NCBI GenBank assembly: GCA_963804085.1
Contig: CAWDOQ010000023.1
Span: forward strand, 32,001 to 96,000
DNA from: Chlamydiia bacterium
GTDB lineage: Bacteria > Chlamydiota > Chlamydiia > Chlamydiales > Rhabdochlamydiaceae
Direction: 5' to 3'
DNA: 64,000 nucleotides
Position numbers and translations under genes: made by a program
The notes under the pieces: model-generated
Seen by the model: the letters and a program-made list of their open reading frames with translations, nothing else
Told to the model about the DNA's origin: nothing
Databases searched by the model: none
Shown: in pieces, positions 6,929-8,936 of the stretch
How positions within the stretch are numbered: the first letter of the stretch is position 1
How the letters are laid out: every line of letters starts with the position of its first letter

Positions 6929-7717
6929 ATGCAACGACGAACACGCCCTCCTAACGACTCCTCCTGGGAGACCTCTCACGACTGGTATGACAAACTAGTG
7001 GGAACCTATGGCCACTACTACCATGAGAAGATCGTACTTCCGAATGCGCTTAGACTACTGAATCTGCAAAAGGAGAAAAGAGCTCTTCGCGTTTTGGATA
7101 TGGGGTGCGGCCAAGGGATTTTAGCCCGCCATCTGCCTAAAGAGGCCACTTATTTAGGGGTAGATGCCTCCCCTTCTTTAATCAGTAAAGCAAAAGAGTA
7201 CTCACGGGTAAAGAGCCACAGCTTTTTGGTTCATGATCTCACTCTGGGCCTCCCGGATGAGATTAAAAATTTCACCCATGCCGCTCTTATCCTCGCCCTG
7301 CAAAACATAGAAGAGCCTCTCGCCGTCTTAAAAAATGCCGCGCACGCGCTCGAAAAGGGGGGCACGCTACTCATCGTCTTAAACCACCCCTGCTTCCGCA
7401 TTCCAAGACAATCTAGCTGGCAAATCGACCCTCAAAAGAAGACCCAGTACCGGCGCATCGACCGCTACTACTCGCCTCTTAAAATTCCCATCCAGACCCA
7501 CCCGAGTAAACAAGAAGCTTCCACCACAACGTGGTCCTACCACCACCCTCTTTCTGCATATAGCGGCTGGCTTAAAGAGACTGGTTTTGTTCTGGAAGTG
7601 ATGGAAGAGTGGCGCTCAGATAAAGTGAGCATCGGCAAAACTGCGCCCATGGAGAACCGTGCTCGTGAAGAGTTCCCTCTCTTTCTCACTCTCCTCGCCC
7701 GTAAAAGTTTTTCTTAA
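6929..7717 (+). CDS. Class I SAM-dependent methyltransferase
   Basis: VLDMGCGQG, GVDAS, LNHPCF, YHHPLSAY motifs. Confidence 0.88.
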   Translation: MQRRTRPPNDSSWETSHDWYDKLVGTYGHYYHEKIVLPNALRLLNLQKEKRALRVLDMGCGQGILARHLPKEATYLGVDASPSLISKAKEYSRVKSHSFLVHDLTLGLPDEIKNFTHAALILALQNIEEPLAVLKNAAHALEKGGTLLIVLNHPCFRIPRQSSWQIDPQKKTQYRRIDRYYSPLKIPIQTHPSKQEASTTTWSYHHPLSAYSGWLKETGFVLEVMEEWRSDKVSIGKTAPMENRAREEFPLFLTLLARKSFS

Positions 7718-8936
7718 TCCTGTTTATCCTGCCGGCGAAGCCGATCGTGCCTATCCTGTTACTTTTCTTAGAAATGCAAGATGACAGGATAAACACGATC
7801 GGCTTCGCCGGCAGGATAAGCAGGATAAATTTAGAGGGAACGAAGGCAGTGCATTAAAGCGGGATCGAATGGATGAGCTTTAATGTAAGCGTCGATAACT
7901 TTAGGAACTGTTTTATCGGGTGTCTTTGGCTTCATCCCAGTGCTAAGCTCAATAAAGTGAGCGTCGGCAAAACTGCGCCCATGGAGAACCGTGCTCGAGA
8001 GGAATTCCCTCTCTTTCTCACTCTTCTTGCCCGTAAAAGTTTTTCTTAATCCTGTTTATCCTGCCGGCGAAGCCGATCGTGCCTATCCTGTTACTTTTCT
8101 TAGAAATGCAAGATGACAGGATAAACACGATCGGCTTCGCCGGCAGGATAAGCAGGATAAATTTAGAGGGAACGAAGGCAGTGCATTAAAGCGGGATCGA
8201 ATGGATGAGCTTTAATGTAAGCGTCGATAACTTTAGGAACTGCTTTATCAGGTGTCTTTGGCTTCATCCCAGTGCTAAGCTCAATAAAGTGAGCATCGGC
8301 AAAACTGCGCCCATGGAGAACCGTGCTCGAGAGGAATTCCCTCTCTTTCTCACTCTTCTTGCCCGTAAAAGTTTTTCTTAATCCTGTTTATCCTGCCGGC
8401 GAAGCCGATCGTGCCTATCCTGTTACTTTTCTTAGAAATGCAAGATGACAGGATAAACACGATCGGCTTCGCCGGCAGGATAAGCAGGATAAATTTAGAG
8501 GGAACGAATGGATGAGCTTTAATGTAAGCGTCGATAACTTTAGGAACTGTTTTATCGGGTGTCTTTGGCTTCATCCCAGTGCTAAGCTCAATAAAGTGAG
8601 CATCGGCAAAACTGCGCCCATGGAAAACCGTGCTCGAGAGGAATTCCCTCTCTTTCTCACTCTCCTTGCCCGTAAAAGTTTTTCTTAATCCTGTTTATCC
8701 TGCCGGCGAAGCCGATCGTGCCTATCCTGTCATATTGTCTTTTTAAGAAAAGTAACAGGATAAACACGATCGGCTTCGCCGGCAGGATAAGCAGGATAAA
8801 TTTAGAGGGAACGGAGGCGCTGCATTAAAACAGGATCGAATGGATGAGCTTTAATGTAAGCGTCGATAGCTTTAGGAACTGCTTTATCAGGTGTCTTTGG
8901 CTTCATCCCCGTGCTAAGCTCAATAAAGTGAGCATC
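7620..8936. repeat. Tandem array of 4 units (332, 332, 307, 332 bp): methyltransferase 3' end + hairpin + 3' end of the opposite-strand gene
   Basis: Units start at 7620, 7952, 8284, 8591 with ataaagtgagc; 14-bp microhomology ataaagtgagcatc at 7620 and 8923. Confidence 0.95.

Follow-up and report, generated by a model that had tools for sequence, protein, structure and literature searches.

Silent-cassette systems that act by gene conversion from promoterless copies are known from Neisseria (pilE/pilS), Borrelia (vlsE), Anaplasma (msp2), Treponema (tprK), and Mycoplasma (the MgPa repeats). Classical REPs are repeats of 20 to 40 bp. According to the accessible parts of two reports, tandem duplication at microhomologies with later multicopy expansion is documented across bacteria (PMC13167724; bioRxiv 10.64898/2026.02.28.708716), and the accessible text of the former gives units under 50 bp for 38.3% of bacterial events (PMC13167724). 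REP super-families are the subject of PMC3733652, as far as its accessible part goes. Here, we describe a tandem array of gene tails in an environmental chlamydia, located in a window of 64,000 nucleotides (the whole stretch of DNA that was analyzed), and compare it with these three kinds of system.

The array resembles microhomology-mediated tandem duplications in its head-to-tail order, the 14-nt identity at its borders and joints, its expansion beyond two copies, and a 25-bp deletion between 4-nt repeats in its third unit. It differs from them in its 332-bp unit, which is longer than most of the events described in the accessible text of PMC13167724, in that this unit spans two convergent stop codons and a palindrome, and in a divergence of 3 to 8% between units, the pattern of which is not simply neutral. 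With silent-cassette systems, the array shares an expressed gene, nearby partial promoterless copies of its variable end, and signs of patch exchange. In contrast to those systems, its silent copies are nearly identical and one is broken, the expressed tail is the conserved form, and the copies, being by-products of the tandem structure, include the tail of an unrelated housekeeping gene as well. The array also recalls REP/MITE-like repeats, having a 116-bp hairpin with 46-nt inverted arms that, at most of its loci, lies in intergenic spacers after gene 3' ends; however, the arms are longer than classical REPs, only five loci exist in the genome, and no Rfam match exceeded the threshold.

Architecture of the array and its palindrome

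The array occupies positions 7620 to 8936 of the window, with no strand assigned, and consists of four units of 332, 332, 307, and 332 bp followed by a terminal 14 nt. Tandem Repeats Finder reported it at 7614 to 8936 with a period of 332, 4.1 copies, 92% matches, and a score of 2243, and an alignment of the four units showed a mean column identity of 90%; both analyses returned head-to-tail direct copies of one segment. It is the sole high-scoring long-period array of the genome across an intergenic spacer, the periods of the others being mostly divisible by 3, and it contains exact repeats of 214, 213, and 148 nt. From left to right, each unit in the alignment joins the tail of a methyltransferase (MT) gene (its last 32 codons) to a 116-bp palindrome and then to the tail of a convergent orphan gene (some 45 codons); both genes flanking the array are intact. 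The MT gene (6905 to 7717, plus strand) encodes a class I SAM-dependent methyltransferase of 270 aa, and its last 32 codons (7619 to 7714), with the stop codon, make up the left edge of unit 1. The protein matched the Pfam families Methyltransf_23, 11, 25, 12, and 31 with E values of 3.5e-12 to 8.6e-10. Its tail motif, SDKxSxGKxAxMENRxRxEFPLFL, was kept in the eight relatives whose match reaches the tail; the locus of a ninth relative stops at its contig end before the tail and was left out of this count. The orphan gene, encoding 190 aa on the minus strand (8802 to 9374), had been named a candidate effector in an earlier sequence-only reading of the window, and its last 45 or so codons form the right edge of unit 4.

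A 14-nt microhomology, ATAAAGTGAGCATC, lies on the plus strand inside the MT gene at 7620 to 7633 (alignment columns 16 to 29) and again inside the orphan gene at 8923 to 8936, where the minus strand encodes DAHFI. The same identity marks each internal joint, at 7952 to 7965 (with a variant G at 7963), 8284 to 8297, and 8591 to 8604. In unit 3, 25 bp are missing between two CGAA repeats. These results agree with the sequence-only reading, which had described four tandem units of MT tail, hairpin, and orphan-gene tail, their fusion through a 14-bp microhomology found in both genes, and the deletion in unit 3.

The palindrome of unit 1 (7714 to 7829, no strand assigned) has 46-nt arms and a 24-nt loop and fills the spacer between both stop codons. 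The palindromes of units 2 (8046 to 8161) and 3 (8378 to 8493) are identical to it, and that of unit 4 (8685 to 8800, no strand assigned) has the same arms around a loop (8731 to 8754) that is inverted and carries 4 substitutions. With its 5-nt flanks, the unit 4 loop matched the reverse complement of the unit 1 loop at 30 of 34 positions, compared with 19 of 34 in direct orientation. In an inverted-repeat search, the arms were 91% complementary; their 92 nt showed no differences among the four units, whereas the flanking tails differed by 5 to 7% and the loop, apart from its inversion, at 4 of 24 positions. The hairpin folded as DNA at -50.2 kcal/mol (z = -12.7), and none of 200 shuffled sequences folded as well. 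In its own genome, the palindrome is present at five loci, the others being on contigs C17, C15, C22, and C19, and at four of the five it lies in an intergenic spacer directly after a gene 3' end. Of the 119 other genomes of the same taxonomic order that were scored, 10 also matched it (E ≤ 1e-5), and in one of them (G107) the arms are 100 to 172 nt apart. The hairpin belongs to a dispersed palindromic family; the papers listed by a literature search included nothing relevant on such a family in chlamydiae. A known RNA family was not recognized in it, the Rfam hits being sub-threshold matches to generic hairpins of miRNA precursors (the best reached 43.8 bits, the gathering score being 97). 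An intrinsic terminator was also dismissed: a simple scan listed none at the palindromes, whose loop exceeds the limit of the scan, and no T-run follows them. The loop inversion in unit 4, the dispersed nature of the hairpin, and the dependence of the copy number on the assembly had been missed in the sequence-only reading.

Silent tails and exchange between units

The silent MT tails lie on the plus strand in unit 2 (7966 to 8049), unit 3 (8298 to 8381), and unit 4 (8605 to 8688) and encode GKTAPMENRAREEFPLFLTLLARKSFS followed by a stop codon. The codons CGT GAA GAG of unit 1 are CGA GAG GAA in units 2 to 4, and CTC CTC is CTT CTT in units 2 and 3 and CTC CTT in unit 4. Unit 4 has a further synonymous change, GAG to GAA, and unit 2 has one I-to-V replacement. 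Six of the seven variable sites are synonymous, and the seventh is the I-to-V site, where orthologs also vary. Against unit 1, the silent tails showed a dN of 0 and a dS of 0.31 (NG86), with no nonsynonymous change in the 27 codons past the microhomology in any of the three. For neutral decay in situ, P was 0.004 to 0.019 across four mutation spectra. This synonymous-only divergence may point to an allele of foreign origin, to a mixture of strains, or to selection that acts intermittently. Two other candidate causes were considered. Chimeric 58-aa plus-strand ORFs (7873 to 8049, 8205 to 8381, and 8512 to 8688), as a reason for the conservation of the MT tails, were set aside as unsupported, having no Pfam match and no promoter-like site nearby. 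A single quasi-palindrome template switch for the change from CGT GAA GAG to CGA GAG GAA was dropped, the silent version forming only a bulged 8-bp palindrome and, when checked by eye, not being an exact complement of the downstream arm.

The orphan protein has a Cys-rich hydrophobic stretch at about residues 46 to 67, and a Pfam search placed it in no family. A search of 5.8 billion proteins gave one relative (P0002, 57% identity), a profile search of 1.84 billion representatives returned nothing past its own cluster, no shorter relatives were found, and the ESM Atlas gave no usable match. An AlphaFold2 model built from a two-sequence alignment was poor (mean pLDDT, 42.3). In a single comparison, the protein matched the product of the neighboring gene at 9451 to 10641 with 25% over 71 aa (E = 0.004); at most, this hints that the two genes are paralogous.

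The silent orphan-gene tails are on the minus strand. That of unit 1 (7831 to 7951) ends in DKTVPKVIDAYIKAHPFDPALMHCLRSL and a stop codon, that of unit 2 (8163 to 8283) contains DKAVPKVI, and that of unit 3 (8495 to 8590) is frameshifted by the 25-bp deletion at about 8504 to 8509 (alignment columns 237 to 261 gapped), its translation ending in AHPFVPS. The tails of units 1 and 2 were found as tblastn-type matches of 80 to 81% identity. The C-termini read DKTVPKVI..DPALMHCLRSL in unit 1, DKAVPKVI..DPALMHCLRSL in unit 2, and DKAVPKAI..DPVLMQRLRSL in the expressed gene, with five nonsynonymous and four synonymous differences between silent and expressed tails. A single residue (T/A) separates the silent tails of units 1 and 2, and that of unit 3 matches unit 1 as far as its frameshift. 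The sole ortholog ends in IDAYIKAHPYDPVLMQRLRSL, like the expressed copy, and the silent tails are changed at four positions where the ortholog and the expressed copy agree. Because this only ortholog carries the expressed C-terminus, the silent tails are the derived form, and they look decayed.

Unit 2 agrees with unit 4 at two sites (alignment columns 307 and 314) and elsewhere follows unit 1, and the site patterns {1,4|2,3} and {1,3|2,4} are incompatible with one tree. These incompatible patterns, together with a further junction variant in run X5 (see below), support exchange between units, as judged from the alignment. Both expressed tails are outliers and the internal copies are alike: unit 1 alone differs at columns 62, 65, 68, and 92, and unit 4 alone at columns 239, 244, 245, 255, 257, 294, and 335 and in the loop. 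Both switch points fall within columns 93 to 156, a stretch of 63 to 66 nt that is identical in all units. On these tails, the observations of the sequence-only reading were well founded: the codon table shows almost only synonymous MT differences with one I-to-V replacement, translation gives the variant orphan C-termini that it had listed, unit 2 is a mosaic of unit 1 and unit 4 alleles, and the count of synonymous and nonsynonymous changes that it had proposed is the one given above for both genes. Its inference, that a different functional allele and not neutral drift was the source of the copies, was borne out in part. The MT tails (dN, dS, and P as above) lend it some support, and the orphan tails, derived at four conserved positions and frameshifted in unit 3, speak against it.

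The joint in public contigs and the genome bin

Sequencing evidence for the joint was taken from Logan contigs of four runs at a depth of 2 to 5. Short contigs bridge the joint in three soil-metagenome runs from two studies, X1 and X2 belonging to one study and X5 to the second. A 166-nt contig of X1 and a 256-nt contig of X2 cross the joint between units 1 and 2 with no differences, including the unit 2-specific G at 7963, and either run may be related to the source sample, so that they are possibly not independent. A 155-nt contig of X5 crosses the same joint with A instead of G at 7963, which is a further junction variant. The tandem joint exists in real DNA, beyond one assembly. The number and order of the units are taken from the assembly, as no public record spans the array or more than one joint, and positions 7237 to 7319, 7486 to 7651, and 8233 to 8730 lie outside the cover of all four runs. 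Run X1 also contains the expressed-type orphan tail with no differences and a variant gene body, on separate records; over 151 nt, the contig with the variant body has five differences, of which three are listed and two of these alter the protein (Y123C and I127M). In X5, three pieces with a match to the hairpin arms alone, unlike the window beyond them, were set aside as other copies of the dispersed element.

The comparison with related genomes that the sequence-only reading had proposed revealed no close relative in any collection searched, and no single-copy state was seen. The exact MT-tail pattern gave no match in metagenome_contigs or genome_contigs, and the orphan-protein alignment gave no confirmed relative among 291 pattern matches in metagenome_contigs; the organism's own genome was possibly left out of these searches. 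Within the family, the MT gene is about 70% identical at the nucleotide level, and one of 40 relatives gave a weak match to the orphan gene. The genome is a bin of 24 contigs, 91% complete and 4.97% contaminated, with haplotig-like contig pairs (C3/C1, 98.1% over 7.2 kb; C7/C19, 98.4% over 6.3 kb; C9/C10, 95.2% over 6.7 kb). Judging from these pairs, the bin holds strain haplotigs. A co-binned second strain was rejected as the source of the silent alleles, as the haplotigs are only 1.4 to 1.6% apart (dS, 0.03 to 0.05), which is too little.

Origin and significance of the array

We consider that the array probably arose by microhomology-mediated tandem duplication, was later expanded and patch-recombined, and has been tolerated since both genes are whole. 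It is most likely a harmless copying accident and not a dedicated switch. In the single-copy ancestor, a state that we infer, as no close relative was found in any collection searched, the 14-nt string would have occurred by chance near the end of the MT gene and again 332 bp downstream near the end of the orphan gene, with the long palindromic element between them. The 332-bp segment would then have been duplicated head to tail when replication slipped or switched template from one 14-mer to the other, and the palindrome with its 46-bp stem may have favored this, either through a stalled fork or by reducing the distance between the 14-mers. Ordinary unequal homologous recombination between the 332-bp direct repeats could have raised the number to four and moved patches between units, producing the mosaic of unit 2, and a deletion at a 4-nt microhomology would have broken unit 3 afterwards. 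Because the unit contains both stop codons, the leftmost MT copy and the rightmost orphan copy stay complete, and the six internal half-gene pieces would be promoterless leftovers. The array would persist because it costs almost nothing. Recombination of a silent tail onto either expressed gene would be possible in principle, as a by-product of this structure and not by a dedicated mechanism. Substrates of this kind are rare but existing: only about 3.5 direct 14-mer pairs 50 to 500 nt apart are expected per shuffled genome. The three near-identical silent tails are as expected from recent amplification of one internal module, and the undecayed MT tails and the identity of the arms while their flanks differ count against the duplication account.

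Alternatively, the duplication may have occurred in a diverged sister lineage (B), the internal modules being the then-functional alleles of B, imported between lineage-A flanks, which we regard as possible but unlikely. The import would have been one homologous recombination whose two crossovers both lay in the perfectly conserved sequence at the left hairpin arm, a step to which we likewise give little probability. Outlying expressed tails, internal copies that are alike, and two switch points in one identical stretch are what such an event would leave; MT tails that differ only synonymously at a dS of 0.31 resemble alleles under purifying selection, and strain variants of the orphan gene exist in the field, as run X1 shows (Y123C and I127M). 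However, lineages at a dS of 0.17 to 0.31 should not share 92 nt of noncoding arms unchanged, so that strong constraint or later homogenization would be required. The orphan tail of lineage B would also need four changes in its 22-residue end, where orthologs of 57% identity differ by one, and no lineage-B flank was found in the genome or in any collection searched. Somewhat harder to accept is a strain-haplotype chimera, in which the joint is real and the number, order, and variant mix of the units are partly a product of assembling a multistrain bin. The contamination and haplotig-like contigs of the 24-contig bin, exact repeats of 148 to 214 nt that exceed common k-mer sizes, and the lack of a public contig over more than one joint all suit this account, which we consider quite improbable. 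The joint with its G at 7963 was reproduced without differences in X1 and X2, and a 14-nt overlap would be too short for a false join in a k-mer graph. Moreover, the haplotig differences (dS, 0.03 to 0.05) are far below those between expressed and internal tails (dS, 0.17 to 0.31), and the features specific to single units (25-bp deletion, G at 7963, inverted loop) are sequences in their own right, not collapsed variants.

The sequence-only reading had likened the locus to a silent-cassette variation locus, a comparison that finds no support at the level of function. The three silent tails are near-identical and offer almost no repertoire, which makes a dedicated cassette system unlikely. Partial promoterless copies do lie beside one expression site, with no sigma-70-like site within 7620 to 8936, although this is a weak test; a diverse repertoire is absent, the silent orphan copies differing by one residue plus a frameshift. 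We think it very unlikely that the array is a working locus where silent tails often reach the expression site by unequal crossover or gene conversion. Such a locus would vary the C-terminus of an orphan protein that is possibly membrane-bound or secreted and keep the MT tails under purifying selection, a combination that we think highly doubtful. One expressed gene with three promoterless partial copies, the mosaic of unit 2, the junction variant of X5, and the intact frame and protein sequence of all silent MT tails would fit such a locus. Set against these are the minimal repertoire (T/A, with one copy frameshifted), the expressed C-terminus being the conserved ancestral form, a structure that arises automatically from duplication across two stop codons, and an orphan protein with a poor model (pLDDT, 42) and no Pfam family, usable Atlas match, or distant relatives.

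A further reading is a young, naturally arisen tail-swap locus in which recombination periodically exchanges the expressed 3' ends of both genes; we give it only a slight chance. If true, purifying selection on every MT tail would explain the dN of 0 at a dS of 0.31, a membrane or secreted protein specific to this chlamydial lineage could toggle its C-terminus between VLMQRLRSL and ALMHCLRSL, and a cassette system would have been caught at birth from a microhomology duplication. Within the silent modules, perfectly preserved MT tails stand in puzzling contrast to decayed orphan-gene tails. For multistrain metagenome bins, the locus advises caution, as real structure is mixed in such arrays with a copy number and an allele phasing that are uncertain. 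The array illustrates clearly how duplication of a segment with two convergent stop codons spares both genes and is therefore retained. With it comes a modest reserve of alternative 3' ends on which recombination could draw later, a plausible first step towards cassette-type variation loci.

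Architecture of the array and its flanking genes

Aligned in register, the array at positions 7620-8936 consists of four head-to-tail units of 332, 332, 307, and 332 bp, and Tandem Repeats Finder gave a period of 332 with 4.1 copies and 92% matches. Each unit comprises the 3' end (last 32 codons and stop codon) of a class I SAM methyltransferase (MT) gene (6905-7717, + strand; 270 amino acids, Pfam Methyltransf_23/11/25), a 116-bp palindrome with 46-nt arms that fills the entire spacer between both stop codons, and the 3' end (last ~45 codons) of a convergent open reading frame (8802-9374, - strand) encoding 190 amino acids. 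Unit 1 holds the expressed MT tail and unit 4 the expressed tail of the 190-aa gene; the other tails are silent. Both genes contain a single copy of ATAAAGTGAGCATC, at 7620-7633 in the MT gene and at 8923-8936 in the 190-aa gene, and a further copy lies at each of the three joints. To the left of this string, the two genes agree again at GCTCA, which a single additional G offsets in the MT gene (7601-7633 versus 8904-8936), so the border similarity is 19/20 with one gap and exceeds the 14 nt described in the sequence-only reading; we took this extra similarity as chance. The alignment, translations, and codon table confirmed the codon changes, variant tails, and mosaic unit 2 of that reading, and the alignment also bore out the 25 bp that it described as missing from unit 3 between CGAA repeats.

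The source genome comprises 2.13 Mb in 24 contigs, with a completeness of 91% and a contamination of 4.97%. The closest named relatives of the MT protein belong to Parachlamydiaceae and Chlamydiae MAGs; no close relative was available, and MT nucleotide identity was about 65-70% in 14 of 18 same-family genomes. Of 40 relatives searched for the 190-aa protein, one gave a weak match; 5.8 billion proteins yielded a single ortholog (P0002, 57% identity), and a search of 1.84 billion representatives returned no protein outside the query's cluster. This protein is an orphan, with no Pfam family, no Atlas match, and no usable predicted model (pLDDT 42), and for these reasons its earlier label as an effector is a guess; the sequence itself shows a hydrophobic stretch rich in Cys and a C terminus that is strongly conserved. 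The neighboring 396-aa gene (9451-10641, - strand), likewise with Cys-rich hydrophobic stretches, is weakly similar to the C-terminal half of the orphan protein (25% over 71 amino acids; pairwise E, 0.004), and the two genes may be distant paralogues. Beyond it, two overlapping frames, 10759-12132 (457 amino acids, ending in an implausible C terminus) and 11972-12562 (196 amino acids), seem to be pieces of one HEAT-repeat protein gene (10759-12562), which points to a frameshift near 11930-11990 that is genuine or was introduced in assembly.

The palindrome and its dispersed family

As DNA, the unit palindrome folds at -50.2 kcal/mol (z = -12.7). It belongs to an ATCCTG-rich dispersed repeat family with inverted arms of 45-58 nt and five loci in its own genome (window 7714-7829, C17:111076-111184, C15:94420-94545, C22:76699-76808, and C19:366535-366643), four of which lie directly 3' of a gene end. 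Of 119 other genomes of the order, 10 contain a match to this repeat family, scattered patchily over the taxonomic families. In some copies the arms are separated by 100-172 nt, as they are in G107, another genome of the order, or stand in the opposite order. No Rfam family matched the palindrome, and literature searches found no description of the palindromic family.

No arm position differs among the four units. In unit 4, the 24-nt loop (8731-8754) reads as the reverse complement of that in units 1-3 (7760-7783, 8092-8115, and 8424-8447) with four substitutions; including 5-nt flanks, 30/34 positions match in the reversed orientation versus 19/34 directly. As the arms are asymmetric and have not changed, only the spacer between them was inverted. 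The loop of units 1-3 resembles the C17 copy, and TTGTCTTTTT..AAG is common to the unit-4 loop and the C19 copy. Intergenic palindromes of another kind, GC-rich and containing GCCCGTGCCC-type repeats, lie at 4552-4624 and 10785-10883 and have arms of 24 and 40 nt; on both strands they give spurious open reading frames with many P, V, R, and A residues.

Divergence of the silent tails

In the alignment, both expressed tails were the outliers and the internal copies were nearly alike: four sites unique to unit 1 fall in the MT tail, and those unique to unit 4 comprise seven in the orphan-gene tail plus the loop. Column 89 (pattern {1,4|2,3}) and columns 307 and 314 (pattern {1,3|2,4}) are incompatible with one tree, so patches have passed between units.

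The MT tail belongs to the conserved portion of the enzyme. Its motif ..SDKxSxGKxAxMENRxRxEFPLFL.., present in the eight relatives whose match extends to the tail, is encoded perfectly by all three silent MT copies, which differ from unit 1 with a dN of 0 and a dS of 0.31. Of the seven variable sites, all but one are synonymous; the exception (I to V) lies at a position where orthologs also vary. When in-situ decay was modeled with selection acting on the expressed copy and neutrality for the silent ones, six or more synonymous sites out of seven had a probability of 0.004-0.019 across four mutation spectra. The silent orphan-gene tails carry nine differences, four synonymous and five not (dN, 0.057; dS, 0.17), and that of unit 3 is frameshifted. 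They end in ..VIDAYIKAHPFDPALMHCLRSL, and the end of P0002, ..AIDAYIKAHPYDPVLMQRLRSL, agrees with the expressed copy, so the silent tails are derived at four conserved positions. These changes, together with the frameshift, form the pattern that neutral decay predicts. The substitution counts proposed in the sequence-only reading therefore divide its claim that the copies came from a functional allele rather than from drift: the MT tails give it some support, but the orphan-gene tails point the other way.

Origin of the array

Public data on the locus consist of short, low-depth contigs from soil metagenomes. The joint of units 1 and 2 was bridged with zero differences by contigs from two runs of one study, X1 (166 nt) and X2 (256 nt), and also by X5, a run of another study, in which A replaces G at 7963 and an undeleted unit-1-type tail is paired with the A-type joint, a combination absent from the window. 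X1 contained the expressed-type tail with zero differences and an orphan-gene body variant with five differences in 151 nt, two of the three listed ones altering the protein. The tandem joint therefore exists in nature, and the locus differs between samples. Copy number and unit order rest on the assembly, because no public record spans the array, within which stretches of 214, 213, and 148 nt are repeated exactly. Small contigs in the bin repeat pieces of large ones at 95-99.6% identity (C3/C1, C7/C19, C9/C10, and C14/C10), with haplotig-like pairs at 98.1% over 7.2 kb (C3/C1), 98.4% over 6.3 kb (C7/C19), and 95.2% (C9/C10); about 70% of the C3/C1 and C7/C19 coding differences are synonymous (dS, 0.03-0.05). 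Two strains or more are therefore mixed in the bin, a point that affects any SNP-level reading of this genome.

The array most likely arose through microhomology-mediated tandem duplication. A 332-bp segment would have been duplicated by template switch or slippage between both 14-mers, the internal module would then have been amplified and patches moved through unequal homologous recombination, and unit 3 would have been struck by a 4-nt microhomology deletion. The palindrome may have promoted the switch. Both genes are whole and the array would be tolerated because the unit carries both stop codons. Such duplication is documented across bacteria and seeds multi-copy repeats, according to passages on this process in PMC13167724 and bioRxiv 10.64898/2026.02.28.708716, and the array has the structure of that class. 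The earlier interpretation stood with respect to unit exchange, but the likeness to silent-cassette variation did not extend further than layout, the array lacking the diversity of pilE/pilS-type systems.

Duplication leaves two features unaccounted for, MT divergence that is synonymous only and 92 arm nucleotides that do not vary beside tails differing by 5-7%, and we considered three non-exclusive additions to it. The internal modules could have been imported from a diverged sister lineage through one recombination event, since both switch points fall within a 63-66-nt stretch identical in all units; however, import needs an unexplained arm identity despite a dS of 0.2-0.3 and a donor orphan-gene tail that broke the conserved motif. 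Strain-chimeric assembly could account for the same MT and arm patterns, but the co-binned strains are far too alike (dS, 0.03-0.05) to be the source. Every MT tail could also be expressed now and then via unit exchange, as a cassette-like locus would have it, although the silent tails offer almost no repertoire.
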